Virus record (IMG/VR): IMGVR_UViG_3300028902_000027 | Source of the DNA: a virus | DNA: 42,945 nucleotides | Direction: 5' to 3' (one strand) | Part shown: positions 172 through 41,340 of the stretch, in pieces | Numbering within the stretch: position 1 is the first letter of the stretch | Layout of the letters: every line of letters begins with the position of its first letter | Made by a program: the position numbers and the translations under genes | Notes under the pieces: model-generated | Told to the model about the DNA's origin: nothing | The model's database searches: none | Seen by the model: only the letters and a program-made list of their open reading frames with translations

Positions 172-234
172 GCCCCGTCGACGGCTAAGACTGCTAAGAA
201 GCCTACCAAGGGAAAGAAGAAGCCCGATGCCTGA
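1..234 (+). CDS. Portal protein, C-terminal fragment (continues from 41346..42945 across the contig junction)
   Basis: Frame 1 is open from nt 1. It reads (PEAPTDPATD)n ... PEAPTAPSTAKTAKKPTKGKKKPDA, then TGA at 232-234, which overlaps the ATG (227) of the next gene. The peptide repeat is the same as at the 3' end of the portal ORF. Confidence 0.75.
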   Translation, partial: PEAPTDPATDPEAPTDPATDPEAPTDPATDPEAPTDPEAPTDPATDPEAPTDPEAPTAPSTAKTAKKPTKGKKKPDA

Positions 235-6697: not shown

Positions 6698-6838
6698 TTG
6701 CGATTGCCTTTCGCTTCGGTGTAGCGTCCCATGCGTTCCTTGTCACGATCGGAAAGCAGGCCTCCCGAAGTGTACGCCGCGATACGTTAGGACCGGGATT
6801 GCTAGAGCGATGCAAAGGATTGCTAGTGCGTCCATTCG

Positions 6839-6919
6839 TAGGAGTGAGGGGATTCGAACCCCTAAGCCTTTCGGCACGGTACCTAAAACCGCTGCGTATG
6901 CCAGTTCCGCCACACTCCC
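6839..6919 (-). tRNA. tRNA-Leu (anticodon UAG), type II with long variable arm
   Basis: Hand-folded cloverleaf. Acceptor GGGAGTG/CACTCCT (G1-U72). D arm GCG-N11-CGC. Anticodon stem GCGGT/ACCGT with loop TT-TAG-GT. Variable arm GCCGAAAGGC. T arm AGGGG-TTCGAAT-CCCCT. Discriminator A. No encoded CCA. Confidence 0.75.
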
Positions 6920-12489: not shown

Positions 12490-12496
12490 GGGACGG

Positions 12497-12525
12497 AGAA
12501 TAGCGGACCCTCCTATGGCAGTCAA
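12497..12525 (-). promoter_or_regulatory. Sigma70-type promoter TTGACT-N17-TATTCT, 7 nt from the ATG
   Basis: Minus strand reads ggggTTGACTgccataggagggtccgcTATTCTccgtcccATG. -35 at 12525-12520, -10 at 12502-12497. Confidence 0.6.
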
Positions 12526-17038: not shown

Positions 17039-17067
17039 AGTATAACCCCCTCATTTGGTAGTGTCAA
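17039..17067 (-). promoter_or_regulatory. Leftward early promoter, TTGACA-N17-TATACT
   Basis: Minus strand reads agcTTGACActaccaaatgagggggtTATACTctccc. -35 at 17067-17062, -10 at 17044-17039. About 70 nt upstream of the ATG at 16968. Confidence 0.7.
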
Positions 17068-19359: not shown

Positions 19360-19430
19360 AGAGGTGTCGTCCAACGGCAGGACCGGGGATTTTGGTTCCC
19401 TGTATCTAGGTTCGAATCCTAGCACCTCTG
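19360..19430 (+). tRNA. tRNA-Gln (anticodon UUG)
   Basis: Hand-folded. Acceptor AGAGGTG/CACCTCT. D arm GTCC-AACGGCA-GGAC. Anticodon arm GGGGA-TT-TTG-GT-TCCCT. T arm CTAGG-TTCGAAT-CCTAG. Discriminator G. Confidence 0.8.
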
Positions 19431-19439
19431 CAAAGTCAC

Positions 19440-19447
19440 CTATCCTA
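19440..19447 (+). promoter_or_regulatory. CTATCCTA box (-10-like), 6 nt before the ATG at 19453
   Basis: caccTATCCTatctgtATG. Member of the recurrent CTAT(T/C)CTA family. Confidence 0.45.
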
Positions 19448-19452
19448 TCTGT

Positions 19453-20550
19453 ATGGGCAAGGTCCTACGGGTAGATTTCGCTTCGGAGAAACTTCCTAGT
19501 CCGGTCACTCTCACGGATGGATCTCTACGTGTGTCCGCTCGAATTGCGCGCACTGGAGTTCAGGTATACCGTTTCGAGGATGGCACGGAATGGAGGGAGT
19601 ATCGTCCGCCGGAAGAAGTGTTCGCTAAGGACTCCCTCGAATCGTGGGATGACCTAGCTGTCACTGTATTGCACCCTTCGGAGCCTGTAGCGCCCTCCAA
19701 CTGGGCCTTGCTTGCGAAGGGACATGTGGACGACCCTTCAAGGGATGGGACGTTCCTAGCAGCAACTTGCGTGGTCAAGGATGCCGCGACCATTCAGGCT
19801 ATCCAGGCGGGGAGCCTAGTGGAAGTGTCGTGTGGCTACTTCATGGACATTGACGTCACCCCGGGCGTTTCTCCCGAAGGTGAATCGTACGATGCCATTC
19901 AACGGAACATCGTTGGTAACCATGTCGCGCTAGGGCCCGTCGATTGGGGTCGTGCGGGTAATGATGTCCGCCTATATGCAGACTCAAAGGACATTGTCCG
20001 GGGGGACTCCAGTAGGCTCCGAACGGACGACTATCCTAAGAGCATGGCCCAAGAGATCCAGAATCCCACTGCGACCCCCGCTGAGAAGGTGGTCCCGTTC
20101 GCCGAATACGAGAAGGTTGCCGCGGAGCGAGACGCGCTCAAGGTTGCCGCCGCTACCGCGGAAGCAAAGATTATCGAGGTGACCAATTCGGTTGACTCGA
20201 TCGTTGCCAAGCGTGTGGGCAATATCGCAGCGGCTCTCAAGGTCAAGCCTACTCTCGACACCTCCAAGACGGATCGAGAGATCATGACGGAGGCTATCAA
20301 GGTTTCCGATCCCACGTTCGTGGCCGATGGCAAGTCGGACGAATACTTGCGCGCTCGCGTTGATACGGCGAACCTTGCTCCGGCCCCGAAGGCCCAGGAA
20401 GAGAACCTCCGTCGTCAAGTCGAGGATTCGGCGAATCAAGCCACCAATCAACCGAGCAAACTCGGAATGGTGGAAGATGCGCGACGGGCCATGATCGAAA
20501 AGAACCTGGAGGCTAACCGCAAGCCTCTGAATGCTCAAGTGAAGGGGTGA
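19453..20550 (+). CDS. Prohead protease/scaffold-like protein (DUF2213-type)
   Basis: The N-terminal pattern ...GSLVEVSCGYFMDIDVTPG...YDAIQRNIVGNHVALG fits DUF2213 as I recall it. The C-terminal half is charged and coiled-coil, like a scaffold. It lies upstream of the capsid gene. Confidence 0.55.
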   Translation: MGKVLRVDFASEKLPSPVTLTDGSLRVSARIARTGVQVYRFEDGTEWREYRPPEEVFAKDSLESWDDLAVTVLHPSEPVAPSNWALLAKGHVDDPSRDGTFLAATCVVKDAATIQAIQAGSLVEVSCGYFMDIDVTPGVSPEGESYDAIQRNIVGNHVALGPVDWGRAGNDVRLYADSKDIVRGDSSRLRTDDYPKSMAQEIQNPTATPAEKVVPFAEYEKVAAERDALKVAAATAEAKIIEVTNSVDSIVAKRVGNIAAALKVKPTLDTSKTDREIMTEAIKVSDPTFVADGKSDEYLRARVDTANLAPAPKAQEENLRRQVEDSANQATNQPSKLGMVEDARRAMIEKNLEANRKPLNAQVKG

Positions 20551-20557
20551 TAGGAAC

Positions 20558-21025
20558 ATGCCGCAAACTTCTTACTCGATTGATCCTGTCATCGCCGTTC
20601 CTGGCATGGCGGCAGACGGAAACCAACTGGAGTGCGAGACGTTCATTGCGTATACCGATCTAGCGTTCGGTCGCGCAGTGCGTATCCGCGCTGATAAGAC
20701 CGTCGAATACCCTACCGATGACACGGGGTCGGTTGTTGGTGTCACTGTCTACCGAGGGATGACGGAGTCCACCTTCCCGCAAGGTTCAGCCGTTATCAAG
20801 GCAGGCACCCCGGTTAGCGTTTGCTTCCGAGGTGACGTGTGGATGGAGCACACAGGGGCCGCGGGTAGCGAGCGCGGTACGGTCAAGCTGGACGACGTTA
20901 CCGGCAAGTCTACAGGCGCCGCGCCTAGTGCGGGTACCATCCGAGACATGTCGTCCCGCGCCATCTTCGTTGACGTGGACAAGCATACTAGCACGCTTGC
21001 GAAGGTCCGTTGGAATCTTCCGTGA
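20558..21025 (+). CDS. Capsid decoration/cement-like protein
   Basis: 155 aa, Gly/Val-rich beta pattern (FGRAV...VVGVTV...GTPVSV...). It sits between the scaffold and the major capsid gene, as in DUF2213/DUF2184 head modules. Confidence 0.45.
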   Translation: MPQTSYSIDPVIAVPGMAADGNQLECETFIAYTDLAFGRAVRIRADKTVEYPTDDTGSVVGVTVYRGMTESTFPQGSAVIKAGTPVSVCFRGDVWMEHTGAAGSERGTVKLDDVTGKSTGAAPSAGTIRDMSSRAIFVDVDKHTSTLAKVRWNLP

Positions 21026-21047
21026 CGGATACAGGAAAGGATGACCA

Positions 21048-22028
21048 ATGCGTCACGATACGATCCAACGAATTCTAGAGCGTACTCTCCCGGTTGTCGA
21101 TCAAGACTACCGCGGCGATGCGAACGAAACTGCGGCGATGGCTCGCCAACTAGAGCACTTCTTCTCCAAGCTCTATCAGATCGAGTATGCGGAAGCGATG
21201 GGGCGCAAGATCGTCCCTCTCAATTTTGAGGTTCCGAGTGGAGCTAGTGCTTTCACGTACGTTCAAATGGACGAACGTGGCGAGGCTGATATCCTCGATT
21301 CCTATAGCAAGGACTTCCCCATGGTGGAGGAGTTCGGTACGGAATCGACGGGTAAGACGCTCCCGATCGCGGCAGGCTTCTTCGTTAGCCTGCAAGATCT
21401 CCGCGCCGCTGCAATGCTTGGACGGGACATTGAAAGCCGCAAGGCTGACATGGCTCGACGCGCAATGGAGCGCAAGCTAGACGCTATCCTGTGCGTGGGC
21501 GATACCAAGTCGGGCCTAAAGGGCCTAGCGAACCTTTCGGGCCCTTCGGTCCTTACCGCGGGAACCGATTTCACTGGCGGTTGGTCGACCGCTACCAGTG
21601 ACCAGATCCAGGAAGATGTCGAGGCACTTCAGAAGAAGATCTTTGACGACACCCTGGGTGTTCACGGCAACCCGGACAATGGGACCAAGCTTACGCTTGC
21701 ACTCCCTCCGGCCGCGTACAGTGCGATTGCGACCCGTCGACTGGACAACTTCCACGAGATGACGATGCTTCAATACATTCTCAAGAATTCGCCGTTCGTC
21801 GGTGACATCGTCTCTTGGGCGCGACTTGCTACGGCAGGCGCCAGTTCCGCTACGCGCGCAGTGTGGTTCGAACGTAGCAACGATGTCTTGGAGGGGATTA
21901 TCTCGCAAGAGGTTGAGATCCTCCCGATGCAACCGAAGGCACTAGGTTGGCAAGTTCCGCTGCACATGCGGACGGGCGGTGTCATTGCCCGGTATCCCAA
22001 GGCAATCTTCTATGCCGACGGTGTCTGA
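21048..22028 (+). CDS. Major capsid protein (HK97 fold, DUF2184/encapsulin-like family)
   Basis: 326 aa. Position after scaffold and decoration genes. The pattern FFSKLYQIEYAEAMGRKIVPL...FTYVQMDERGEA is typical of this family as I recall it. A strong terminator follows. Confidence 0.75.
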   Translation: MRHDTIQRILERTLPVVDQDYRGDANETAAMARQLEHFFSKLYQIEYAEAMGRKIVPLNFEVPSGASAFTYVQMDERGEADILDSYSKDFPMVEEFGTESTGKTLPIAAGFFVSLQDLRAAAMLGRDIESRKADMARRAMERKLDAILCVGDTKSGLKGLANLSGPSVLTAGTDFTGGWSTATSDQIQEDVEALQKKIFDDTLGVHGNPDNGTKLTLALPPAAYSAIATRRLDNFHEMTMLQYILKNSPFVGDIVSWARLATAGASSATRAVWFERSNDVLEGIISQEVEILPMQPKALGWQVPLHMRTGGVIARYPKAIFYADGV

Positions 22029-22054
22029 AACTCGCTAAGGGGTGCGGGAGTTAG

Positions 22055-22090
22055 AGAGGGCTCTAGACTTAGGTCTAGGGCCCTTTCGCT
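22055..22090 (+). terminator. Rho-independent-type terminator after the capsid gene
   Basis: GGGCTCTAGAC-ttag-GTCTAGGGCCC (11-bp stem with one G-U pair, 22058-22083), extendable by 3 pairs, followed by TTTCGCT. Confidence 0.6.
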
Positions 22091-22096
22091 ATTCTA
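22089..22096 (+). promoter_or_regulatory. CTATTCTA box, 5 nt before the ATG at 22101
   Basis: ttcgCTATTCTAaggcATG, immediately after the terminator hairpin. Confidence 0.45.
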
Positions 22097-22100
22097 AGGC

Positions 22101-22382
22101 ATGGCCGTTACCCTTTCCGCGTTCCGGGATATGCATCCTGAATTCCAGAACGTTCCTGACGCGCTCTGTCAAGCGTGTCTAGACGAAGCCCTAGCTTCGC
22201 TGAATGCAACCCGTTGGGGTACTATGATTGATATTGGACAGAGGTACCTTGCAGCGCATCGCATCGCGCTAAGCCCTTACGGTCAAGGCACTCGCTTGGT
22301 AACGAGCAAGGAAACCACAACCTACGGAACTCATTACGAAGATCTAGTTAGGCAGATCTCGGAAGGGGTTGCAGTGCTATAA
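22101..22382 (+). CDS. Head-tail connector/adaptor-like protein (DUF4054-like)
   Basis: 93 aa. FRDMHPEFQNV...RYLAAHRIAL fits the DUF4054 pattern as I recall it. First gene after the capsid terminator. Confidence 0.5.
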   Translation: MAVTLSAFRDMHPEFQNVPDALCQACLDEALASLNATRWGTMIDIGQRYLAAHRIALSPYGQGTRLVTSKETTTYGTHYEDLVRQISEGVAVL

Positions 22383-22888
22383 TGGCAGGGTCCAAGATCA
22401 AGATTACCGACAAGTCTTCCACTAAGGATTGGAAGACTGTATACGGGAAGGGGAAGGCCTCCGTTACCGTTGGAGTCCTTGACTCAAAAGGTGGATCGGA
22501 GAAAGCCTCGAAAGGCAACATCACTCTTTCCGAGCTTGCAGCGATCCATGAGTTCGGCCTTGGAGGACTACCAGAGAGGAGCTTCATTCGTTCCTATTTC
22601 GATGCCCATACCAAGGACTTGATCGCAATGGTAGCCAAACTCATGGCTAAAGCCATTGCAAAGGCAACCGCAAGCGGCAAGCCTATCACAGACGAGCAAC
22701 GTAAGGGAATCTTGGGAATAGTTGGAGCGTATGCGAAGGGGCAGATCCAAGCTCGGATTTCTAATAAGGAAATCCAACCGCAGAAGCTAGCCGATAGCAC
22801 CATTGAACGCAAAGGATCGTCGGTCGCATTGATCGACACAGGGCAACTAAGAAGCTCGATTGATTACGAGGTCAAGATCAATGGCTGA
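22382..22888 (+). CDS. Head-tail joining protein, HK97 gp10-like
   Basis: ELAAIHEFGLGGLPERSFIR ... LIDTGQLRSSIDYEV matches the gp10-family signature. Confidence 0.65.
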   Translation: MAGSKIKITDKSSTKDWKTVYGKGKASVTVGVLDSKGGSEKASKGNITLSELAAIHEFGLGGLPERSFIRSYFDAHTKDLIAMVAKLMAKAIAKATASGKPITDEQRKGILGIVGAYAKGQIQARISNKEIQPQKLADSTIERKGSSVALIDTGQLRSSIDYEVKING

Positions 22889-23753
22889 TCATCATTTCCC
22901 GGATCGAGCTTGGCTCAAGAGCATCGTTCAGAAAGCCGTGGGGGCTCTTTCAGACGTGTCGTGGGACTATGAGCCTACCAACTTTCAAGGCTTCTCCGGC
23001 CTAGGTGTGGACGGAGATCCACTTCCTGGCATGCCTTTGGCTCCTCCCGCGTTGACGGCGCAAGCGTCCGGAGGTGCGACGCAAGTAACTCTATCGATTC
23101 CTTCCTGGGTTGGCCACGGGAACGATTGCGTTACTCGATCGCTTGTCATGGGTCCTTGGACACTTGCCGGCCCTACCCCTCCGACGATCGTTATCGCAGG
23201 GGATGTTGATACGGAGAAGGTCAAGCGACTTGATATTCGTGTCACTCTAGCCGGCGCTAGAGGGGTTTGGGAGGGCGAATACAGTCTCGATAGGGGTGTG
23301 ACGTGGGTCCCATTCACAAGCGCCGCAACCGTCACCCTGGGCACCTCCGGTCTAGAGCTACAGATCTCGACGGGCAACGCGAGCTTGACGAACACTTGGA
23401 GAAGCAATCCGGCGCAAAGCCTGCTCAATTCTGGTTTGCGTCACTTCACCTTGTCGATCAAGTGTGAAAGTGAATCGGACGCACACTCCATTCTCGAGAG
23501 GGTCTCTACCTATTTCAATCTGAAAAGCACAATCTCTCAACTTCCATCCCATTTCATGGCGCTTAGGGATGTGTCCGAAGTGGTCAACCTTCCCAACGTT
23601 GAGTGGGATGGGAGGGCAATCCGAGCCGCGGTGCTAGAAGTGTTCCTTACTTACTTGACAGAGCAAGTGGACACAGAGGGAGAGACGGGAAGTGAGTTCC
23701 CAAACAACTGGATTGAGACGGTGCTACCTCCAACCTCCGAATTGACGGACTAA
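22881..23753 (+). CDS. Hypothetical virion (neck/tail completion?) protein
   Basis: The ATG at 22881 forms an ATGGCTGA overlap with the upstream stop. Assigned by position between connector genes and later virion genes. No motif recognised. Confidence 0.5.
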   Translation: MADHHFPDRAWLKSIVQKAVGALSDVSWDYEPTNFQGFSGLGVDGDPLPGMPLAPPALTAQASGGATQVTLSIPSWVGHGNDCVTRSLVMGPWTLAGPTPPTIVIAGDVDTEKVKRLDIRVTLAGARGVWEGEYSLDRGVTWVPFTSAATVTLGTSGLELQISTGNASLTNTWRSNPAQSLLNSGLRHFTLSIKCESESDAHSILERVSTYFNLKSTISQLPSHFMALRDVSEVVNLPNVEWDGRAIRAAVLEVFLTYLTEQVDTEGETGSEFPNNWIETVLPPTSELTD

Positions 23754-23761
23754 CTATTCTA
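23754..23761 (+). promoter_or_regulatory. CTATTCTA box, 6 nt before the ATG at 23767
   Basis: ctaaCTATTCTAttactATG. Confidence 0.45.
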
Positions 23762-23766
23762 TTACT

Positions 23767-24663
23767 ATGCAACCCCGCCCCTTCCTTTGGGTAGCCTTCC
23801 CTACCATGCTTGGAGGCTATGCCAAGATCGTTGATATGGCCCATGCGCTGGGCTTTGCAGGCATTGCGCCGCGAGCTGGTCAAGGCAATCGAGACGGCTC
23901 GTTTTCGTCTAGCCTTGACATGAAAGACGTTCGGCGGATCATCGATTCCGGCCTTGAATGCCTACCATGGGAGTTTAGTCGACCGGAGGCTATCAAGTCG
24001 GAGGTTGCGAACGCTATCGAGTGCCAAGACAACGGAGCGACGGCGTATATCATTGACGCCGAACTCCCTTGGGATCAAGCGAGCAACGCAAAGGATCGTG
24101 CAAAGGAAATGGGGGACCTTCTTCTCCCTCACATGTCGATCCCTGTGTATGATGCTCCCTGGCCTTGGATTGACTGGCATCCTGGATACCCGGAAAAGGA
24201 ATTCCGTTGGGTCGACGGTAGGCTTATTCAGGCTTACTGGACAGAGATTGGCGTCTCTGCCCGTCTGTGTCTTGATCGAGCGAAAGAGCAATGGGCCAAG
24301 AGGGATTCCCGTGTGTATCCGATCGGGGTCACGTACGGTAAGAAAGAAATCCAGAAATGGGGTGCGAGCCAATTGCCTCCGGGCGAGATCTCCGTTGACA
24401 CCGTCAAGGCAGTGGCGGCCGAGATTACCGGAGGTTGGTATTCCATGGAAGCGGCCGGGCCCGGCGTTCTGGACGCCCTAGGTTCCATTCTAAAGGCCGA
24501 TCGTCCTACCCCTGTCCCTGTCACCCCTACCCCTTCGGACGAGCCGCCGGATACGCTTCCGGAGGCCTGTTCAGCCGAGGTAGCGGAGTGGAGGTGTATC
24601 CGGGAGGAAGCCTTGGAAGCTCTGTCTATCTTCTCGGATTCCATCGGAGGGTTGTTCGGATGA
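23767..24663 (+). CDS. Possible TIM-barrel glycoside-hydrolase-like protein (candidate muralytic enzyme)
   Basis: Alternating beta/alpha-like pattern. GFAGIAPRAGQG and ATAYIIDAELPW resemble GH25/DUF1906-type lysin motifs (weak, from memory). Pro/Thr linker and short C-terminal tail. A holin-like gene follows. Confidence 0.3.
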   Translation: MQPRPFLWVAFPTMLGGYAKIVDMAHALGFAGIAPRAGQGNRDGSFSSSLDMKDVRRIIDSGLECLPWEFSRPEAIKSEVANAIECQDNGATAYIIDAELPWDQASNAKDRAKEMGDLLLPHMSIPVYDAPWPWIDWHPGYPEKEFRWVDGRLIQAYWTEIGVSARLCLDRAKEQWAKRDSRVYPIGVTYGKKEIQKWGASQLPPGEISVDTVKAVAAEITGGWYSMEAAGPGVLDALGSILKADRPTPVPVTPTPSDEPPDTLPEACSAEVAEWRCIREEALEALSIFSDSIGGLFG

Positions 24664-24953
24664 CACACATTCAAATGGGCGCCGTCCTTGGAAGCTTGAC
24701 AGGCATGGTGGGTGCCGCCGTTAGTGCGGCGGACGGTCTAGTTACCCTTCCCATGGGAGTGCTTATCGGGATAGCCTCTGCTCTAGTTGGAGGTGTCTGG
24801 TTTGCGGCGGATAAGTTGGGCAAGATCTCCACTGATATTGCCGTACTAGTCTCTCAGAACGGAGCGGATCATACCCGCTACGATCATGCTCTAGAGATTC
24901 TAGGCAATAAGGTTACCGAGCATGGAGAGAAGCTAGCCAAGCTCGACGATTGA
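24660..24953 (+). CDS. Holin-like membrane protein (two TM helices plus coiled-coil tail)
   Basis: ATGA overlap with the upstream stop. MTHIQMGAVLGSLTGMVGAAVSAADGLVTLPMGVLIGIASALVGGVWFAA, then a charged C-terminus. Confidence 0.5.
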   Translation: MTHIQMGAVLGSLTGMVGAAVSAADGLVTLPMGVLIGIASALVGGVWFAADKLGKISTDIAVLVSQNGADHTRYDHALEILGNKVTEHGEKLAKLDD

Positions 24954-24961
24954 CTATCCTA
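24954..24961 (+). promoter_or_regulatory. CTATCCTA box, 18 nt before the ATG at 24979 (GAGAGGA Shine-Dalgarno in between)
   Basis: ttgaCTATCCTAtttGAGAGGAaacaagcATG. Confidence 0.4.
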
Positions 24962-24978
24962 TTTGAGAGGAAACAAGC

Positions 24979-25311
24979 ATGCCTATCGAAAAGCGCCGGT
25001 CTACGGCTAACAAGGGTCAAGCGTCCGCTGCTACCACTGGAGCAAACCAGACGACTGGAATCAAGCTAGCGAGCACCCCGGCCGGTTTCGGTAAGAAATG
25101 GGTTACTGTGATCTTGAACGGAATGGATCTCCAAATCGGGGATGCTGTCAAGACCAAAGACTTCTATTTCTCGCGCGATGGCGGAACCACTGCACTAGGC
25201 CTGAACGCTCTAAAGAAGGGCGACACCCTTTACTGGACTAAGGCCCGAGAGGCTTACAACCTCTCTACCTCTGACCTCATCTCGATTGATTACGAAACCA
25301 CGGGGGTTTGA
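24979..25311 (+). CDS. Hypothetical virion protein (110 aa)
   Basis: ATG with a good SD. No motif recognised. Confidence 0.55.
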   Translation: MPIEKRRSTANKGQASAATTGANQTTGIKLASTPAGFGKKWVTVILNGMDLQIGDAVKTKDFYFSRDGGTTALGLNALKKGDTLYWTKAREAYNLSTSDLISIDYETTGV

Positions 25312-25314
25312 ACG

Positions 25315-25938
25315 ATGCTACCTTTCAAGTCGCTTTCTCAGACTCCTACGGCCCGTTGCGTTCGTACCACGAACGTCACTAGCCTTGCAGCGTTCGCTGT
25401 GGCCACGGGAACGGACGGTGTTACCCTTGTGGAAGGGGATACTGTTCTCTTGGTTGCACAGACTACCGGAGCGGAGAACGGCCCTTACGTGGTGGGTGCC
25501 GTCGCAGGCGGTAACGCTCCGCTTACCCGTCCGGATTGGTTCTCGACTGGAGACACCTTCCGACCCGGGATCAAGTCTTCCATCTATGTCACGGATGGAA
25601 CCATCTTCCAAGGAACTTGGTGGGATTCGAAGAAGACGGCCGCGGGTGTGGTCGGTACGGACGATCCTCTGTACTACGTCCGTCGCGTTACGGTTGCTGC
25701 TACCCTAGTGGCGGGTACTGTTACGATCGCGACGATCCCTCTGTTCAGTGCAACTAAGAGCAGCGTCCAACTGCAATTGGTAACGCCGAATACGACCACC
25801 TCGACAGTGACCTATTCGACGCCAACCCTTACCATCGGGAAGATTGGTACGGCTTCGATTGTCGCTCGCGCGAACGTCGCCGCCGGTACGATCAATGCGG
25901 CGGACGTTAGCACCCTTGCTGTGACTGTTCAGAACTGA
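25315..25938 (+). CDS. Tail-fibre-related protein
   Basis: VRTTNVTSLAAFAVATGTDGVTLVEGDTVLLVAQTTGAENGPYVV resembles the common fibre/spike N-terminal motif (A.T.NI.L.G...IDGV.L..GDRVLVK.Q....NGIY). Confidence 0.5.
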   Translation: MLPFKSLSQTPTARCVRTTNVTSLAAFAVATGTDGVTLVEGDTVLLVAQTTGAENGPYVVGAVAGGNAPLTRPDWFSTGDTFRPGIKSSIYVTDGTIFQGTWWDSKKTAAGVVGTDDPLYYVRRVTVAATLVAGTVTIATIPLFSATKSSVQLQLVTPNTTTSTVTYSTPTLTIGKIGTASIVARANVAAGTINAADVSTLAVTVQN

Positions 25939-25944
25939 GATCCC

Positions 25945-26226
25945 ATGTCGGTAACCAACCAAGCTCCGGGAGCCGAGCAGAGCAAAGCCCTAAGCGTTGT
26001 AGCAGCACAACTGCACGCGAACCTTGCTTGCGTCAAGGGTTGCTTCGTTGGCAATCCTTACGACAGTGGAATCATCGTTGCGGTTGGACGAACCTCGGGT
26101 GTGACGATGGCTAAGGGAGTTCAGTTGGCGCCAGGGGAAAGGCAATTTTTCCCTGTGTCAAACGTGAATAAGTTGTATGGGATTGCCGCAAGCGGAACCC
26201 CTACCGTTTCGATCGTTCCCGTCTGA
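25945..26226 (+). CDS. Hypothetical protein (93 aa)
   Basis: ATG ORF between two fibre-like genes. Confidence 0.5.
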   Translation: MSVTNQAPGAEQSKALSVVAAQLHANLACVKGCFVGNPYDSGIIVAVGRTSGVTMAKGVQLAPGERQFFPVSNVNKLYGIAASGTPTVSIVPV

Positions 26227-26235
26227 AAGGGATTC

Positions 26236-28155
26236 ATGTCGCGCCGTCTAGCAGCCGAAGTGCTAGCTATCTTGACCGATAGCGCCAAGCCTAAGGGAGT
26301 AGATTATTCGCTACTCCCTGTTGGGCCTTTGCCCGGCCGGACCCTTCCGGGAGGGCGTACGTATACGCAAGCGGTTGGCGCTAACCAGACCGAAGAGACA
26401 GTGCAGACCAGTGCGTCGACCGTCGCGCGTTGGAACTTCATCGCTGACAGGCCTCGCATTGGTTTGCTTGCAGACGGCGGAACGGGCTTGGTGCTAGAGC
26501 CGCCGCGGACGAATCGCGCCGTTCGTTCCGATGCGATCGACAATGGATCTTGGTTCGTTGAATCGGGAGCAGTTTCGCGCGGAGCCAATGTTACTGCGTC
26601 ACCTACAGGAACCGTCGACGCAGAGTCCGTGTCTTGGACATCCGGCGCATTGCGCTACATTGGACAGACAATCTCTTTCGCACTAGAAACCTCAACCATT
26701 TCGATTTGGGCTAAGGTTTCAAGCGGTAAGATTCGTTTGCGCCTACCTTCCCAGGTGGGTGTGTCGAACGTAGACAGCGAGGACTTGACTCCAACATCTT
26801 CGTGGGCTGCGTTCGCACATACAGTCACTAACGTTACTACGGCCGGACCTTCTAGCGCAATTGTGGAAAGCGACGTGGCTAATGGTGCCATGTCCGGACA
26901 TATGTGGGGGGCGCAAGTTGAGGCCGGTAAGTATCGCACGAATTGGCTTCCCACTGTAGCGGGAAACGTATCCCGTGCAGGCTTTCGTTTGCAAGTCTCC
27001 ATTCACAATCTAGTGCGTGGAGGAACCTTCCGAGCTACCATCTCCCATGTCCCTTGGGCGGATTGTACTGCCTACGATGGGGATACTGCAACCGTTCGTC
27101 TATGGACGATTGACGCGAATACGTATGCAGAGATCAATACCTCCACTCGGGTATTGATAGTGTGCGTGAATGGTGTGTCAAGGGTTGCGGCAGTTCCCAT
27201 TTGGTGGCTAAAGGGTCATCGTATCGAATGGTATTGGAGCGTAGGCAATGGCGCTCTGTATGTTCGATATAAACTCTCTACGGATAAGGGTGTAAGCTAC
27301 ACTCTACCCTTTGATCCGTTCGCGGGAGTGGTGAATACGGACGCTGCTATCAGCACTTCCGCAACCCAGGTTGACCTTTACTCCGATGGTTCGGGTAAAT
27401 GGTTCGGCAACGGAGCTTGCAGAGAAGATCTGGTTTACTCCGCTCCCGCTTGGGCGCTTCAAGCGTTGCCTACGGATGTTGCTTCGGTTCAAGCATTCTT
27501 CCGAGCGGACCATTCGGTTACGTTGTCCGGAAGTTCCGTTACGGGTTGGGGCAGCAATGGCGCTGTAGCTATTACCGCGTTCAGTCAAGGTGTAGGCGCA
27601 AACCAACCTACTTTCGCAGCATCCGGTCTAGGTACTGCAAGACCTAGTTTTACGTATGACGGAGCCAATGACTACTTGGAGGCTGGCCCGTTGTCGGAGT
27701 GGATCACTTCGCGCGGCGCGGTCTATGTACTGTTCAAGGCTAACTCTGTCAGCACGAACAATACCCCGAACTACAATAATCACCCTCTATGGGAAAACAT
27801 CGGAGCCTATGCCGGAATAGGTCTAAGAACCGGACCCATTGCAGGTGGATTCAATTACGACGGCACGTATGACGATGCATCCGTTTCGTTCGCGCTTTCA
27901 ACATCTCAAGTAGTCCGATGGCGCCACGACGTTAGCAACCTGTATGTGAGGGTTGGTACCTCGGGTGAAAGCGCACCAACCGCAAGCGGGGCAACCTCTT
28001 TGCTGACAGGCAACAACCGTATTGGAGGCAATCCTGGAGCGGTTGGAGTCTACTTCAATGGGCACATTGCGGCAGTGGTAGCGATGAATACGCAACCCAC
28101 CACTAACGAAGATGTCGCGATTATGTCTTTCCTGAACGCCTATGGTGGGCTGTAA
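26236..28155 (+). CDS. Tail fibre / receptor-binding protein with lectin-like (ConA/LamG-type) domains
   Basis: LEPPRTNRAVRSDAIDNGSWFVESGAVSRGANVTASPTGTVDAESV matches the widespread fibre motif (E..RTN....S......W.......V......APDGT..A). C-terminal FTYDGANDYLEAG resembles the LamG motif. Confidence 0.65.
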   Translation: MSRRLAAEVLAILTDSAKPKGVDYSLLPVGPLPGRTLPGGRTYTQAVGANQTEETVQTSASTVARWNFIADRPRIGLLADGGTGLVLEPPRTNRAVRSDAIDNGSWFVESGAVSRGANVTASPTGTVDAESVSWTSGALRYIGQTISFALETSTISIWAKVSSGKIRLRLPSQVGVSNVDSEDLTPTSSWAAFAHTVTNVTTAGPSSAIVESDVANGAMSGHMWGAQVEAGKYRTNWLPTVAGNVSRAGFRLQVSIHNLVRGGTFRATISHVPWADCTAYDGDTATVRLWTIDANTYAEINTSTRVLIVCVNGVSRVAAVPIWWLKGHRIEWYWSVGNGALYVRYKLSTDKGVSYTLPFDPFAGVVNTDAAISTSATQVDLYSDGSGKWFGNGACREDLVYSAPAWALQALPTDVASVQAFFRADHSVTLSGSSVTGWGSNGAVAITAFSQGVGANQPTFAASGLGTARPSFTYDGANDYLEAGPLSEWITSRGAVYVLFKANSVSTNNTPNYNNHPLWENIGAYAGIGLRTGPIAGGFNYDGTYDDASVSFALSTSQVVRWRHDVSNLYVRVGTSGESAPTASGATSLLTGNNRIGGNPGAVGVYFNGHIAAVVAMNTQPTTNEDVAIMSFLNAYGGL

Positions 28156-28550
28156 TGTTCGTAACCAACCTAACCCTTGCAGACGCTAAGCAACTCTGCA
28201 ACCGCTTGGACAAGTGCCTAGGAATCCCTCCGGAGGGCTTGGAAGGCATTGGAGGGCCCGGGCGCACCATGAGGTGGGCAGAGCCTATTCCGCTCGCCGA
28301 TGGTACATACGCTGTTCCTGTACCTAAGAAGGGTAGGCTAAAGGATCTGCTAGATGCCTTGCGCGATCGGAAGTCTGAGTCCGCGCTAACGGACGATCGA
28401 ACGGACAGCCTATCCGGTCAAGTCACTCCGAAGGTAATCTCAAAGGCGAATCTCAAAGAGGTTATCGATCTGGTCGCAACGGCCAGAAAGCTCGATCCCT
28501 CTGAACTGAAAACAGATACCACAAAGGATTTGCAAGATGTCAAAGCTTGA
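28155..28550 (+). CDS. Hypothetical protein (possible fibre assembly factor, by position only)
   Basis: TAATG overlap with the fibre gene. No motif recognised. Confidence 0.45.
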   Translation: MFVTNLTLADAKQLCNRLDKCLGIPPEGLEGIGGPGRTMRWAEPIPLADGTYAVPVPKKGRLKDLLDALRDRKSESALTDDRTDSLSGQVTPKVISKANLKEVIDLVATARKLDPSELKTDTTKDLQDVKA

Positions 28551-28809
28551 CTATATTTTCGCTTGGTTCAACTTGCATCCGTTCGCCGCCGCAATCGCTG
28601 GGTTGATCCTTACCGCGGCCGTCAATTGGCTTGTGGCCTATCTCACCTCCGAACGGTGGACCAAGCTAGTGGCGAGCAACCCTCGCCTTGCGGCCTTCCT
28701 ACTGCTCTTGAAGCATGCCGGATTCAATCCGGTTGGTGTGCTGCAAGCTCTCCAGAACATCGTTACCGGCAAGCTTGGCTTGACCTCTAAGAAGGATGAC
28801 ACCAAATGA
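28537..28809 (+). CDS. Holin-like membrane protein (90 aa)
   Basis: Hydrophobic segments HPFAAAIAGLILTAAVNWLVAYL and LAAFLLLLKHAGFNPVGVL, with a charged C-terminus (SKKDDTK). Confidence 0.5.
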   Translation: MSKLDYIFAWFNLHPFAAAIAGLILTAAVNWLVAYLTSERWTKLVASNPRLAAFLLLLKHAGFNPVGVLQALQNIVTGKLGLTSKKDDTK

Positions 28810-29063
28810 AGCACCTACTTCTAACCCTTGCGATCCTCACCTCCGGTTGTGCGTGGTTCTCGCGCGCTAACCATGCAAAGGATCTGGCTTCCATCCTTTC
28901 GTGTATCTCCGGAGAAGCGGCGGCCGGAAAGAGTCCGGGCGAGATTGCTCTCACTTGTGGTCTTGAGAATGCAGACGAGGTCATTGACCTTATCACGAAG
29001 TCTCAAGGCGTTTCTAGCGCGGCCCCGAAGATGGGACCCGCCGCACCTAAGGCGAGCAAGTGA
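28806..29063 (+). CDS. Lipoprotein (lipobox LTSGC), o-spanin-like by position
   Basis: MKHLLLTLAILTSGC signal/lipobox. ATGA overlap with the upstream gene. Pro/Ala/Lys-rich C-terminus. Confidence 0.6.
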   Translation: MKHLLLTLAILTSGCAWFSRANHAKDLASILSCISGEAAAGKSPGEIALTCGLENADEVIDLITKSQGVSSAAPKMGPAAPKASK

Positions 29064-29341
29064 TCTCGCTTCTCCGGGGCTTGCAGGTAGGCCTATTGGG
29101 CGGAATCCTGGCGATCGGTTGTCGCTCCGACCATCCGAAGCCAATCCCCGTAGGTGACGCATGCGAGCGCGCGCAAGCGCACCTAGTGGAAATGGGTTGT
29201 TCCTGGCAAGTCAATGCCTCCGGCGGAACGTGGGCAAGCTCTTGCACATACCTTGCGGGCAAGGGGTATCCGAGGATCCTTGTCGTGGCGGAATGCGTCT
29301 CCGTTTCCTCCACCTGTGAAGGGGCCAAGACATGTCACTAA
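29060..29341 (+). CDS. Cys-rich lipoprotein (lipobox LAIGC)
   Basis: GTG start in a GTGA overlap. MISLLRGLQVGLLGGILAIGC, then six further Cys residues. Confidence 0.55.
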   Translation: MISLLRGLQVGLLGGILAIGCRSDHPKPIPVGDACERAQAHLVEMGCSWQVNASGGTWASSCTYLAGKGYPRILVVAECVSVSSTCEGAKTCH

Positions 29342-30087
29342 TGCACCGCCTAGATGCATGCTGCCTAGTGAAGTCCCCTCCCGGTCAATGGGACTCGCCT
29401 TGGATGCCACGCCGCGCGCCAAGCGCAAGGCCTACCGTCGATCGCTTCTGTCTTGACCCTACCGCCTTGATTCGTGTGCAAGTCGGAGGGACTTGCGCCG
29501 GTAACGCGATTGCGCAAGCGATTACTACGGGAATTGTCCTACTGGGCGGCGACCGTATCGAGGTGAGCGGGACAGGGGTTTGGGCGCAAGGGCAGCTATG
29601 GGGTGCCATTGAAGGTGCGGACGTTGATCCCAATGCAGGTACGTGGGTCGCCAAAGCCTTGGAAGCTTGCCGCGTATGGGGTTGGCCTACGCGCAATGAC
29701 CATCCGGAAGAAGATCTCAGGGCGCTTGACGCGAGCGCGCTAGGGGAGATTGTTGCTCGCGCGGTTGGCCGTTACACATTCGAGCACAAATCCGTCTCGG
29801 AAAGTGACTGCAAGGATGCGATTTCGGAAGGCTGGACGATCGTCACCTCCGGTACGGTTGACGAAGCCTTTGCGAATGCCAAACCAGGGGGATGGCTGGA
29901 CACCTGCATTAGTGGAGGTGGCCACTCGCTTCTCGTCGACGGATGGGATCCGGCCGGTTATCTAGTCCGTGATACATGGGGTCGCGGCGTAGGCGAAATC
30001 GAATTGGAGCGCAAGCGTTTGCATGGCTCCGTCAATTGGATGCGTTCCCGTTGGGAGTTGCGCGCCACTCGCGTCGTGTTCCGATAA
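29332..30087 (+). CDS. Papain-like (C1-type) cysteine peptidase, candidate endolysin
   Basis: QVGGTCAGNAIAQA (Gln/Cys), GGGHSLLVDGWD (His) and VRDTWGRGVGE (Asn-position Asp, SWG-like). These occur in the order expected for the C1 fold. Confidence 0.55.
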   Translation: MSLMHRLDACCLVKSPPGQWDSPWMPRRAPSARPTVDRFCLDPTALIRVQVGGTCAGNAIAQAITTGIVLLGGDRIEVSGTGVWAQGQLWGAIEGADVDPNAGTWVAKALEACRVWGWPTRNDHPEEDLRALDASALGEIVARAVGRYTFEHKSVSESDCKDAISEGWTIVTSGTVDEAFANAKPGGWLDTCISGGGHSLLVDGWDPAGYLVRDTWGRGVGEIELERKRLHGSVNWMRSRWELRATRVVFR

Positions 30088-30089
30088 CA

Positions 30090-30097
30090 CTATCCTA
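30090..30097 (+). promoter_or_regulatory. CTATCCTA box, 14 nt before the ATG at 30111 (AGAGGA Shine-Dalgarno in between)
   Basis: aacaCTATCCTAatacAGAGGAtccATG. Confidence 0.4.
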
Positions 30098-30110
30098 ATA
30101 CAGAGGATCC

Positions 30111-31896: not shown

Positions 31897-32337
31897 ATGG
31901 CATTTCCCCACCTAGTGCAAGAGAGACGAATCGGAGATCACACCTATACGTGCGAGCCGCTAGGGTTCGTGTCCGGGCGACGGGGCCTAGTGCGCCTCGG
32001 AAAGACCCTAGGGCCGGCCCTTGCGGCTCTTGCGCTTGCAGAGGGGCCAACGGACCTCTCTGCACTTGCGGGAGGCTTTGCGAGGCTTCTAGAGGGCTTG
32101 TCGGAGGAAGATCTAGTTTTCTTCGATAACCTGTTTGGTCCGGTGTCGCAGTGCACGCTTCCGGACGGGAAGAAGCCACTTGTAAAGGATCTCCTGCTAG
32201 GAGATCACTTCGCAGGGAAATATGCGGAATACTTCGCTTGGCTGGCATTCTGCATTCAGACAACGTACGCTGATTTTTTCGCCGTCGCGCTCGCAAAGGC
32301 CGGCGAGCACGTTCAGACGGCGAAAGCATCCGGGTAG
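31897..32337 (+). CDS. Tail assembly chaperone (G-like, zero-frame product)
   Basis: 146 aa, immediately upstream of the tape measure. It contains the slippery heptamer T TTT TTC near its 3' end. Confidence 0.7.
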   Translation: MAFPHLVQERRIGDHTYTCEPLGFVSGRRGLVRLGKTLGPALAALALAEGPTDLSALAGGFARLLEGLSEEDLVFFDNLFGPVSQCTLPDGKKPLVKDLLLGDHFAGKYAEYFAWLAFCIQTTYADFFAVALAKAGEHVQTAKASG

Positions 32338-32537
32338 AGTTACCGGAAGGGGTGGAATGGGCCGAATGGCGCCTTATCACTTCCCCTCGGTTCAAGATCG
32401 TAAGTTTGACCCAGTTGGATCGAGAATTCGCATTCATTGAAGGGGTTGACGCACACGCTATTCTAGATGCGTTGGAAGAAGCTGAAGCGGAGCAGATCCG
32501 GCGGTCAAGAGAAAGCCTAGGAAGACATGGCGCTTAG
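31897..32537 (+). CDS. Tail assembly chaperone, -1 frameshift fusion product (GT-like)
   Basis: The -1 frame is open from 32274 to the TAG at 32535-32537. A slip at 32274-32280 joins ...TTYADFF to RRRARKGRRARSDGESIRVELPEGVEWAEWRLITSPRFKIV.... Confidence 0.6.
32274..32280 (+). promoter_or_regulatory. -1 programmed ribosomal frameshift slippery site T TTT TTC
   Basis: Zero-frame codons are gat ttt ttc gcc. The hairpin GCTCGC-aaaggccg-GCGAGC (32289-32308) starts 8 nt downstream. Confidence 0.6.
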
Positions 32538-35982: not shown

Positions 35983-36158
35983 TGGTCATTGATCCCGAAA
36001 TGCCGTTGACCAAGATCAACCCGGCGAACTCAGAAGAAAAAGTGTTCTGGGATCGGGCGTTCCTTTCCATGTTGCCAGCGTCCGGCAATGTGTATGTAGC
36101 GGCCCAAGCGGCGGACGTTGCTATTCAAGCTCGACGCAAGAGGCTAGAACACCCGTGA
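35982..36158 (+). CDS. Hypothetical small protein (58 aa)
   Basis: The ATG at 35982 is in a TAATG overlap, and the stop overlaps the next GTG. Confidence 0.4.
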   Translation: MVIDPEMPLTKINPANSEEKVFWDRAFLSMLPASGNVYVAAQAADVAIQARRKRLEHP

Positions 36159-36844
36159 GTGACGAAGGCTATGAGCTTACAGACATTCTCCGCGCATCCA
36201 ACGAAGCCACGTTGGATGGTATCAACGTTGCTCTCCCTGGCATTGTGGTTAGCTACTCCGCTGCTAAGCAGACGGCAACAGTGCGTCCTGCTGTCAAAGT
36301 CCCTAGGAAGGTGGCCGGAAAGTTTCCCTCTGACGAAACGGGAATCACTTATCAAACCTTGCCCGATTTGCCGGACGTGCCTATCGCATGGGCCAGTGGT
36401 GGCGGTTACGTGGCGACTTTCCCCCTTGCCGCAAACGATCCTGTTATGCTGATTTTCTCGTCGGTAGCGTTCGGGGAATACATGCTAAGCGGGAAAGTGT
36501 CCGAACCCAAGGACACTCGGAAGCATTCGCTTGGCTATCCTATTGCTATACCGGGAGGCGCACGGCCCGATACGAAACCGATCCTTGACGCTAGTGCTAC
36601 GGAGATGGTTATCGGAAAGGACAATGGAGATCCACAAGTCCGTATCGGCGCGACGACTATCACACTTGGCAAGGGTGCGACGGATGCGGTTGCGCTTGCG
36701 AGTAAAGTACTGACAGAGTTGCAAGCAATCAAGACAGCATATGACGGGCATACGCATACCGCGCCCGGAGGTGCTACGGGAGTCCCAATCCCTCTATTGC
36801 CTACCCCGGGATCGGTAGCATCCACTCTAATCAAGGCTAAGTAA
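36155..36844 (+). CDS. Baseplate central spike (Gp138 N-terminal / Mu gp45-like)
   Basis: PGIVVSYSAAKQTATVRPAVK ... LPDLPDVPIAWASGGGYVATFPLAANDPVMLIFSS matches the spike OB-domain pattern. GTG start. Confidence 0.65.
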   Translation: MSDEGYELTDILRASNEATLDGINVALPGIVVSYSAAKQTATVRPAVKVPRKVAGKFPSDETGITYQTLPDLPDVPIAWASGGGYVATFPLAANDPVMLIFSSVAFGEYMLSGKVSEPKDTRKHSLGYPIAIPGGARPDTKPILDASATEMVIGKDNGDPQVRIGATTITLGKGATDAVALASKVLTELQAIKTAYDGHTHTAPGGATGVPIPLLPTPGSVASTLIKAK

Positions 36845-39055: not shown

Positions 39056-40315
39056 ATGGCAGATCTTCCTATCAAGGTTCTATATGCGGCCGATGCGAAC
39101 TATGCAGCGGGCGCTCACCCTTGGAGTGGTACTCCGACGAAGGTAGCTCCGGGGTCTAGCTTCCAATCCAAGGGTTGGATCCCTGGGTCGCCGATCGCGG
39201 CGCAGGAACAGAATTACGTTATTGACAAGATCCAAGACCTTGCGATCGACGCACAGCAACGCGGGGCAGTCAAGGCTATTGCGCAAGGGACCCTTGACAG
39301 TTACTCCCTGGGTTGGTTTCTTGAAGGCACTAAGCGTCTCGTCTCGTCGGTTGACGTAACGGGAACTCAGAAGATTACAGCGTTCGCCGCGAACAATCCG
39401 GGTCGTAAGGCTTCTAGCGCGACGACCATGCCAAGCTTCCAAGATCGTTTCGCTTACGATCGAGTTTCGAAGAAGCTAGTATGTTTCTCCAAGCCTTTGG
39501 TTGGTAGCTCCGGAACCTTCCTGGATATCACCGATGATAAGGCATTGACTACTGCCAGCCGGAACCCTCCGACCGTCAATGCTCGCTACACCGACGTTTG
39601 CACGGATGTCAGTACCGGCAAAATCGTCATGGTCTCTGCGCTCGATCCTGGTACGCCGGCCTTCGGAGTGGCCTACGGAAGCCCTCCTAGCGCCCTCTCT
39701 TGGACGGCCGCGGGCATCGGTTGGATTTCGGATACTGAGACCAAGATTTCCAGCAAACCTGGAGAGACTAGGATCTTTTCGTATCAGAAAACGTACAGTA
39801 CGCCCGATGCTGGAGCTACGCTATCGTCGGTCAATACCACGACATGGACCGGAGGCTATACCGCCGGATCCACCATGTTCCGACCGTGCTGGGATACGCT
39901 AAAGAGCCGCTGGATTTGCTCCACGGCAAAGATGGGTGTTTCCCATGACGATGCTTCGTCTAGCTCCAAGCTTTGGACGAGCACGGACGGGATCACTTGG
40001 ACGACGCTGGCGACCAATCCGGCGTATGTCTTCCTCGACATGGTCTGTTTCAAGGGTTGGCTTTGGGCCGCGGGTTGCGTCCTAGACCGTACCGGCAACC
40101 CTGGACACGGAGGGATCGAGATCTTTTACTCCCGCGACGGGGGGACTACTTGGATCCGTACAGGGCTCATCCTGTCCCTTCGAACCGGCGGAACCGTCAC
40201 GGACCACCAACCTAGGTTGGTTCCCTGCGACGGTATCCTAATGTGTCTCACCTACCGAGCTACCGGAGCCGCGGGCGACTTGGATTACATTGCCGTTGAC
40301 ACGGGAGCGCTCTAG
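39056..40315 (+). CDS. Tail fibre with C-terminal BNR/Asp-box (sialidase-like beta-propeller) domain
   Basis: The N-terminal KGWIPGSPIAAQEQNYV is fibre-like. Two canonical Asp-boxes SxDxGxTW are present: STDGITW (about 39980-40000) and SRDGGTTW (about 40130-40153). Confidence 0.65.
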   Translation: MADLPIKVLYAADANYAAGAHPWSGTPTKVAPGSSFQSKGWIPGSPIAAQEQNYVIDKIQDLAIDAQQRGAVKAIAQGTLDSYSLGWFLEGTKRLVSSVDVTGTQKITAFAANNPGRKASSATTMPSFQDRFAYDRVSKKLVCFSKPLVGSSGTFLDITDDKALTTASRNPPTVNARYTDVCTDVSTGKIVMVSALDPGTPAFGVAYGSPPSALSWTAAGIGWISDTETKISSKPGETRIFSYQKTYSTPDAGATLSSVNTTTWTGGYTAGSTMFRPCWDTLKSRWICSTAKMGVSHDDASSSSKLWTSTDGITWTTLATNPAYVFLDMVCFKGWLWAAGCVLDRTGNPGHGGIEIFYSRDGGTTWIRTGLILSLRTGGTVTDHQPRLVPCDGILMCLTYRATGAAGDLDYIAVDTGAL

Positions 40316-41320: not shown

Positions 41321-41340
41321 ATGATAGCACACCTATTCTA
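41321..41340. promoter_or_regulatory. Back-to-back -10-like boxes for divergent portal and small-terminase-like genes
   Basis: CTATTCTA at 41333-41340 (+) is 6 nt before the portal ATG at 41346. TATCAT at 41326-41321 (-) is 6 nt before the ATG at 41314. Confidence 0.4.

Follow-up and report, generated by a model that had tools for sequence, protein, structure and literature searches.

A recurrent CTATYCTA box as a candidate leaderless late-promoter element among the virion genes of an uncultivated tailed phage

The CTATYCTA box and its sites

The 42,945-nucleotide (nt) stretch of IMG/VR virus record IMGVR_UViG_3300028902_000027 (the window, by which we mean that whole stretch) is a 42.9-kb tailed-phage genome of 55% GC, in which the octamer CTATYCTA stands before several rightward virion genes. 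A first-pass annotation made from the letters alone had proposed this box, placed just before start codons, as a candidate phage-wide promoter of leaderless mRNAs. All its coordinates are correct and the recurrence that it pointed out is real, but the scope was overstated, as exact copies occur only in the virion (late) block; moreover, six exact copies were listed there and three, at 20031, 32458 and 36535, were overlooked. The sites are as follows (aa, amino acids; ORF, open reading frame).

19440-19447, plus strand: protease box, CTATCCTA, 8 nt past the tRNA-Gln(TTG) gene (19360-19431, plus strand), followed by 5 nt and ATG 19453 of the head maturation protease/scaffold gene.
20031-20038, plus strand: internal protease box, CTATCCTA, followed by 5 nt and an in-frame ATG at 20044 (codon 198 of 365).
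22054-22087, plus strand: terminator-like 15-bp hairpin downstream of the major capsid gene, separated by 1 nt from the adaptor box.
22089-22096, plus strand: adaptor box, CTATTCTA, followed by 4 nt and ATG 22101 (E217_gp27-like head-tail adaptor).
23754-23761, plus strand: CTATTCTA, right after the previous stop, followed by 5 nt and ATG 23767 (298-aa protein).
24954-24961, plus strand: CTATCCTA, right after a TGA stop, followed by 5 nt, GAGGA and ATG 24979 (110-aa protein).
30090-30097, plus strand: sheath box, CTATCCTA, followed by 5 nt, GAGGA and ATG 30111 (tail sheath).
32458-32465, plus strand: CTATTCTA, within the tail-chaperone extension ORF, 61 nt before the tape-measure ATG 32527.
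36535-36542, plus strand: CTATCCTA, within the baseplate-region gene 36155-36844, where it codes for part of ...G-Y-P-I...; no nearby start codon.
41333-41340, plus strand: portal box, CTATTCTA, followed by 5 nt and ATG 41346 (portal).
41321-41326, minus strand: TATCAT, followed by 6 nt and ATG 41314 (small terminase-like gene), facing the portal box.
12496-12525, minus strand: TTGACT (12525-12520), 17 nt, TATTCT (12502-12497) within CTATTCTC (12503-12496), followed by 6 nt and ATG 12489.

The TATCAT hexamer, like its distance of 6 nt from the small terminase-like ATG, is confirmed, and this ATG lies only 31 bp from that of the portal gene. The capsid hairpin has a centroid energy of -31.9 kcal/mol, and the whole 76-nt stretch around it a z-score of -3.9.

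Enrichment and strand bias

The nine exact copies all lie on the plus strand and among the rightward virion genes (19440-41340). Dinucleotide shuffles give an expectation of 1.18 copies on both strands together; nine copies were reached in 0 of 100 shuffles. The octamer is always co-oriented with the genes, and TATYCTA occurs 10 times on the plus strand and never on the minus strand. The tenth copy of the box, CTATTCTC, precedes the leftward gene that starts at 12489. One-mismatch variants of CTATYCTA are scattered over both strands and are not start-proximal, so the exact octamer is the unit. The loose pattern CTAYHCT, which covers the whole box family, is not enriched alone (22 versus 17.3 expected), unlike the lineage-specific octamers and the arrangement of a box plus a start codon. 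Within the box, the hexamer TATYCT fits the form TAnnnT, with invariant A2 and T6, in 10/10 sites of the window, and the eight columns hold 1.0-2.2 bits each. A shared -35 or other upstream element was sought and none was found, every upstream column holding at most 0.7 bit.

The recurrence might be thought a product of chance, or a by-product of coding or composition, given that the copies at 36535 and 20031 encode Tyr-Pro in frame and that the family pattern is hardly above its expectation. The counts given above speak against this, as do the location of 7/9 exact copies (all but 20031 and 36535) within or bordering intergenic spacers, the spacing to start codons, and the conservation of the box above its flanks in a close relative and at orthologous places in four further lineages, all described below. 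This explanation is effectively refuted for the set as a whole; the copy at 36535 is possibly one of chance or coding, and it, and perhaps 32458, may be non-functional. The 32458 box is also a possible promoter with a leader.

Three other sequences came up in these scans. The only TATYCTA copy without the 5' C, GTATCCTA (40233-40240, plus strand), is located close to the 3' end of gene 39056-40315 and is directed into the resolvase-like and small terminase genes, which run leftward, so that it could produce an antisense or an upstream portal transcript. TTGACG stands exactly 7 nt before TATTCT at two sites (23740-23761 and 32444-32465), and also at the orthologue of the first in the close relative (7925-7946 of contig L006); it was rejected as an element, being without significance once multiple testing is allowed for (chance would give about 0.4 such cases) and wrongly spaced for a -35. 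The over-represented octamers CTTGCAAG and TTGATCAA are accounted for by tetranucleotide bias.

Spacing to start codons and Shine-Dalgarno sequences

At six sites the box ends 4-6 nt before an ATG (5, 5, 4, 5 and 5 nt for 19453, 20044, 22101, 23767 and 41346, and 6 nt for 12489), and at the other four the start codon lies 17 nt (24979), 13 nt (30111) or 61 nt away, or is missing. Finding at least five of the nine exact boxes with an ATG at a spacer of 4-6 nt has a probability of P = 1.5e-5. The genome-wide enumeration that the first-pass annotation had called for thus finds the motif both enriched and start-proximal; the sites named there were right, and the distances given for the boxes were one above the true number of spacer bases. 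Counted from the TATYCT hexamer, the spacers at the six sites are 6, 6, 5, 6, 6 and 7 nt, and an A of the ATG 6-7 nt past TATYCT is at the usual distance from a -10 hexamer to +1. The ATGs at the close-spaced exact boxes open long ORFs; for those at 19453, 22101 and 23767 no earlier start codon is possible in the ORF, and the N-termini that they begin are conserved in relatives. None of the six boxed starts has a Shine-Dalgarno sequence, and most other genes of the phage carry AAGG, GAGG or GGAG at the usual distance.

The two boxes followed by a Shine-Dalgarno sequence have the same geometry as the others. At 24954 and 30090, and at their orthologues in L006, GAGGA begins at the sixth base past the box, which is the position held by the A of the ATG in the four leaderless sites with a 5-nt spacer. 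This fixed layout of either ATG or GAGGA indicates that something begins at a fixed point about 6 nt past the box, a point that is a purine in 8/10 sites. The predicted +1 is G 24967 for the 24954 box, which would give a 12-nt leader opening with the Shine-Dalgarno sequence, and G 30103 for the sheath box. By eye, the box pyrimidines (AUCCU/UCCU) could also pair with the downstream GAGGA(U) in a read-through RNA (30092-30108 and 24957-24971) and mask the Shine-Dalgarno sequence, which transcripts begun at these two boxes would leave unpaired.

What begins at this point could in principle be decided on RNA, with the box acting as a non-Shine-Dalgarno ribosome-binding site, as a translational operator of the kind bound by T4 RegA, or as an endoribonuclease site at which longer RNAs are trimmed to leaderless ones. 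The box does occupy the Shine-Dalgarno position in five genes that lack one, and several copies (23754, 24954 and 30090) sit immediately past the stop codon of the preceding gene and would therefore lie within polycistronic RNA. However, the box is pyrimidine-rich (CUAUYCUA) and could not pair with a 16S rRNA 3' end that carries a CCUCC-type anti-Shine-Dalgarno sequence, nor does it keep a fixed distance to the start codon: 4/10 copies are 13-61 nt from a start or have none, and two of the genes concerned own a GAGGA. The fit to TAnnnT with invariant A2 and T6 also argues for DNA rather than RNA, as do two observations on relatives set out below, namely that after the capsid hairpin the box is the sole element up to the start codon in four lineages, and that at 12503 (minus strand) a -35 located 17 nt upstream is conserved together with the box across a diverged spacer. 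We thus hold an action on RNA to be quite improbable.

Conservation in related phages

The close relative is represented by two contigs, L002 and L006, with 85-89% protein identity. L006 holds seven exact boxes (0.46 expected), all on the sense strand, of which six are orthologous to boxes of the window; in these six, 46/48 positions are identical, the two differences both falling on Y, compared with 57% identity in the 5-nt spacers and upstream 20 nt and 80% DNA identity in the capsid gene. More distant relatives (44-53% capsid identity, 54-68% GC) carry a sister box, CTACCCTT or CTACACTT, with ATG or GTG 4-5 nt further on. It occupies places equivalent to those in the window: ahead of the protease gene, at an internal in-frame Met of that gene, past the capsid terminator, and ahead of the sheath and portal genes. 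Their hexamers, TACCCT, TACACT or TACCAT, retain the TAnnnT form. The equivalents are as follows.

Protease box: L006:3617, CTATTCTA, 5 nt, ATG; L007:8123, CTACCCTTagggcGTG; L063:8139, CTACCCTTccgccATG; L062, CTAAAATC, 5 nt, ATG; L010, TACCAT, 7 nt, ATG at the conserved protease N-terminus.
Internal protease box with in-frame start: L006:4208; L063:8739 (ATG 8752); L062:8923 (ATG 8936), CTACACTT, 5 nt, ATG.
Adaptor box: L006:6270, L007:11064, L010:8677 and L063:11111.
Box at 23754: L006:7939, box retained with a different spacer.
Box at 24954: L006:9139, CTATTCTAatcgaGAGGA.
Sheath box: L006:14421, identical in box and spacer; L010:16813, CTACCCTTggacATG, before the L010 sheath gene.
Portal box: L011, CTACCTTTagggcGTG, before the portal gene.
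TATCAT of the small terminase-like gene: L011, CTACACTA, 9 nt, ATG.

In L007/L011 (68% GC), CTACCCTTagggcGTG before the protease gene is repeated after the capsid hairpin; L007 has CTACCCTT three times where 0.06 are expected, the third copy being inside the protease gene. L063 also has CTACCCTT three times (0.44 expected), before the protease gene, at the in-frame internal protease Met and after the capsid hairpin, each time followed by 4-5 nt and ATG. L010 has it after the capsid hairpin and before the sheath gene. The order of hairpin then box is found at the same place in L006, L007, L010 and L063. Over six independent lineages (W, L007, L010, L061, L062 and L063) we counted 18 box-plus-start arrangements, with about 3.7 expected; a box of L010 at 16424 (minus strand) leads only to a 42-aa ORF and was not counted as support.

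The copy inside the protease gene deserves separate mention. The box and in-frame Met lie in the variable linker that joins the protease domain to the coiled-coil C-terminal half, and ATG 20044 is the predicted internal leaderless start of a 168-aa C-terminal scaffold-like product (20044-20550). A boxed in-frame internal start is found in four lineages, with the peptide D/S-Y-P/T-x-x-M, a Pro/Thr codon that is always NCT and the codon pattern TAY-NCT-W. This arrangement suggests that the nested scaffold-like protein is made from a leaderless transcript of its own.

In the relatives, leaderless starts appear to be systematically mis-called by automatic gene callers, which choose codons upstream or downstream of the box-adjacent ATG/GVG; the latter fits the conserved N-termini better. 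The starts concerned are L006 7991 (which should be 7952), L010 8635 (8689), L063 8080 (8152) and that of the L011 portal gene; automatic starts also differ at L010 5740, L063 11129, L011 13831 and L002 208.

Promoters with -35 elements

The leftward gene starting at 12489 was described in the first-pass annotation as having a TTGACT -35 box, which we confirm, with a 17-nt spacer and TATTCT. ATG 12489 opens the first gene of the leftward replication operon, which ends in a sigma gene (see next section) and the terminase gene. L002 keeps GGTTGAC, CTATTCTC and the ATG, and the 17-nt stretch between -35 and box has diverged, a pattern that reads as a classic -35/-10 promoter footprint. A second canonical promoter-like site lies in the early leftward region:

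17039-17067, minus strand: TTGACA, 17 nt, TATACT.

The early leftward genes of L063 are preceded by a repeated cassette made of TTGCAC, N17, CTATGCTG (hexamer TATGCT), a leader of some 30 nt that closes with GAAAGGCTCC, and ATG (3290-3330, 5377-5415 on the minus strand, and neighbours); these leadered cassettes with a Shine-Dalgarno sequence contrast with the leaderless late genes of the same phage. A simple sigma-70 scan found no excess of canonical promoters.

These sites bear on the possibility that the boxes are leaderless promoters read by the host primary sigma alone, as in hosts that commonly use TAnnnT promoters with only a -10, with the phage sigma serving other genes or another time of infection. 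The heptamer CTATTCT is also the -10 of the 12503 (minus strand) promoter, which has a good host-type -35 and is conserved in L002, and in L062 the box-like CTACACTG precedes the primase gene. Two known cases point the same way: the Thermus phage Lalka27a has a class-specific late box and yet encodes no sigma factor, and promoters with only a -10 and leaderless transcripts are common in mycobacteria, as far as the account in PMC4633059 goes. On the other hand, the -35 promoters of the early regions (17067-17039; TTGCAC-N17-TATGCT in L063) indicate that the hosts appear to use a -35, of which the late boxes have none; the invariant octamer is far tighter than a usual housekeeping -10; and the box family spans phages of 54-68% GC, of which L011 at least keeps a syntenic sigma gene. 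Reading by the host sigma alone is in our view unlikely, though less so than an action on RNA.

A phage sigma-70-family protein

The first-pass annotation had invoked a phage sigma-like factor as a possible reader of the box. Such a protein exists, as a divergent member of the sigma-70 family recognized with profile, Pfam, NCBIfam and Foldseek comparisons:

3126-3761, minus strand: sigma-70-family protein, 211 aa, its 3' end overlapping the start of the large terminase gene (1673-3142).

As a single sequence it has no Pfam or PHROG match and only marginal sigma matches in PDB; a word-indexed homologue search returned only itself and one relative, and tblastn against isolated phages one marginal match. 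An exhaustive HMMER search found nine further homologues. The profile of the 10 homologues matches sigma region 2 of SigA/SigF/RpoS with E down to 3.9e-17, 7/10 homologues match Pfam Sigma70_r2, and the NCBIfam SigF/SigG models are matched at E = 1e-6, under their cut-offs. An AF2 model from the 10-sequence alignment has a pLDDT of 72 (48 with two sequences), and each of the 50 Foldseek matches listed for this model is a sigma factor or an RNA polymerase complex (mostly its chain F), over the whole length. The best matches are SigF/SigG/WhiG/SigA and not gp55; no search aimed at gp33-like proteins was made. In L011 a homologue (BLASTP 7e-11, weak Sigma70_r2 match) lies directly before the terminase gene, so that the position of the sigma gene next to terminase is conserved in at least one distant relative.

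Genome context

The remaining features of the window are the following.

19453-40315, plus strand: virion genes, in the order protease/scaffold, cement protein, major capsid protein, E217_gp27-like adaptor, neck and tail-terminator proteins, sheath, tube, chaperone, tape measure and baseplate.
41346 onwards, plus strand: portal gene, with a MuF-like gene next.
From 12550, rightward: primase-polymerase gene.
Leftward replication genes: PD-(D/E)XK nuclease, SNF2-like helicase and family A DNA polymerase, followed by the 211-aa gene and then the large terminase gene.
6838-6919, minus strand: tRNA-Leu(TAG), the second phage tRNA gene.

A 30-nt tandem repeat is present at both ends of the window (1-184 and 42759-42945), which indicates that the contig is probably a circular assembly opened within the repeat, the copy number of which is uncertain; the repeat encodes PTDPATDPEA units that form a long C-terminal extension of the portal ORF. 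An Rfam scan gave tRNA as the sole match. The tRNA-Gln is 100% identical in L006, where its upstream flank is fully diverged. The 298-aa gene (23767-24663), called hydrolase-like in the first-pass annotation, has no Pfam or PHROG match.

The phage lineage is represented by metagenomes only. The capsid region had no match by blastn against GenBank phages, the terminase at best 33% identity by tblastn against isolated phages, with no close isolated phage, and in IMG/VR one distant locus was found (30% capsid identity, 39% GC), which is without the box. A search for the host by scanning genome contigs yielded nothing beyond loci in unrelated taxa, with 30% identity or less. The GC range of 54-68% within the clade indicates that there are probably several different hosts.

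Some observations stand apart from the box. TTAA is nearly absent from the window, with one site (6291) against 104 expected by base composition, and is also depleted in L002/L006 (5 versus 72), in L007/L011 (0 versus 28), and in L061 and L062, but not in L010 or L063, which suggests escape from a TTAA-specific host restriction system. GATC is enriched 2-fold in the window and 5- to 7-fold in L007/L011. A short overlapping ORF (32352-32537) comes after the tail assembly chaperone gene (31897-32337) and immediately precedes the tape-measure gene, the usual site of a programmed frameshift product.

Discussion

Our preferred interpretation, to which we give roughly two chances in three, is that CTATYCTA is the core -10-type element of late promoters with a leaderless outcome, the phage sigma being its likely reader. 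That the box is a promoter giving leaderless mRNAs is, taken by itself, a little more probable still, and this part of the earlier proposal is supported: every prediction that could be tested on the sequence (TAnnnT, spacing, lack of a Shine-Dalgarno sequence, conservation) holds. If the box is indeed a promoter, the balance tips towards the phage sigma as the factor that reads it.

From the layout of the sites we infer a scheme in which TATYCT, taken as the hexamer, would have its A at -11 and its T at -7, with the box spanning -13 to -6 and transcription starting about 6 nt past it. At five sites (protease, nested scaffold-like product, head-tail adaptor, 298-aa protein and portal) +1 would be the A of the start codon, plus or minus one base, and the mRNA would have no leader; at two (110-aa protein and sheath) it would be the first G of GAGGA, so that the mRNA would open with its own Shine-Dalgarno sequence. 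No -35 would be needed, and the most likely reader would be host core RNA polymerase carrying the 211-aa sigma-70-family protein, although the host sigma may recognize the same hexamer when a -35 helps. As the gene for this sigma is among the last of the leftward replication operon, which itself would be under a host-type -35 promoter, an early-to-late cascade might result. The virion block would consist of at least six or seven late units, with transcription starting anew in one of them immediately past the capsid terminator.

Several observations weigh against this scheme. Only about seven of some 35 late genes are directly preceded by a box, and the copies at 36535 and 32458, neither of which is covered by the L006 comparison, have no adjacent start codon. 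The internal protease box encodes Tyr-Pro, so that constraint on the protein could account for some of its conservation. A C-terminus resembling region 4 seems to be retained in the sigma protein, whereas the boxes show no conserved -35. Finally, the near-identical box CTATTCTC, with a good -35, heads the replication operon and the box-like CTACACTG precedes the L062 primase gene, which suggests that the box may not be strictly late and that the host primary sigma may read it too.

More broadly, and as a tentative proposal, these phages might form a clade of uncultivated E217-like myoviruses with their own SigF/WhiG-like sigma needing only an 8-bp box from -13 to -6. The box would lie 4-6 nt before start codons, and late mRNAs would start on AUG/GUG or on the first base of the Shine-Dalgarno sequence, with an intragenic promoter for the nested scaffold protein instead of internal translation initiation. 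For a phage lineage seen only in metagenomes, the analysis provides a regulatory map, with -35 early promoters, a phage sigma gene and at least six or seven putative late units, and it would correct gene starts that automatic callers placed wrongly in the relatives. It also points to a host that translates leaderless AUG and GUG mRNAs well and suggests a transcriptional route to nested scaffold proteins; the compact pair of a sigma and an 8-bp box is a possible orthogonal expression module.

The principle of class-specific late promoters with only a -10 and of leaderless phage mRNAs is known from Thermus phages and T4, so that what is gained here is breadth and not a new mechanism. In Lalka27a, 16 late promoters have a class-specific TAGGGT box with start sites 6 bp downstream, and most late mRNAs lack a leader and have the A or G of the start codon as their first base, a pattern shared with phage YS40 (bioRxiv 10.64898/2026.04.20.719267). 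The window resembles YS40 and Lalka27a in its apparently class-specific, highly conserved TAnnnT box, in having no usable -35 and in the many putative late promoters inside the virion module; early and middle promoters are TTGACA plus TAnnnT in these Thermus phages, and similar sites are found here at 12503 and 17067 (minus strand). It differs in the box itself, which is CTATYCTA/CTACCCTT without a conserved C at -25, and in that this phage and L011 encode a sigma next to terminase, whereas Lalka27a has no recognizable sigma factor. The lineage is unrelated to the Thermus phages, with E217/PB1-like virion genes, and its starts are predicted, whereas those of Lalka27a were measured.

The late promoters of T4, TATAAATA, are 8-bp boxes that cover -13 to -6 and are recognized by gp55, a phage sigma (PMC1524935). 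The likeness lies in the near-invariant 8-bp box, for which -13 to -6 is also the position predicted here, in the lack of a -35, in the location ahead of virion genes and in the presence of a phage sigma-family protein. In T4, gp55 is a minimal sigma dependent on gp33 and on the sliding clamp gp45, and the late mRNAs have leaders with a Shine-Dalgarno sequence. The sigma of the window, in contrast, resembles the SigF/WhiG type and has about 200 aa, no link to a clamp loader was seen, and leaderless transcripts are predicted.

Leaderless genes of Actinobacteria and Deinococcus-Thermus, to the extent that they are covered in PMC4633059, resemble the boxed genes in having TAnnnT 6-7 nt before ATG/GTG and no Shine-Dalgarno sequence. 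Unlike such host promoters, in which the hexamers are degenerate, the invariant octamer described here would mark one temporal class of a phage. Leaderless genes with only a -10 also occur in Deinococcus-Thermus.

Finally, the in-frame internal start at the boundary between protease and coiled-coil scaffold-like part recalls the scaffold genes nested in head protease genes of the lambda C/Nu3 and P2 gpO type. In lambda the internal product arises from internal translation initiation on the same mRNA, whereas the internal ATG found here has a promoter box and no Shine-Dalgarno sequence, in an arrangement that recurs in four lineages and for which a separate leaderless transcript is predicted.

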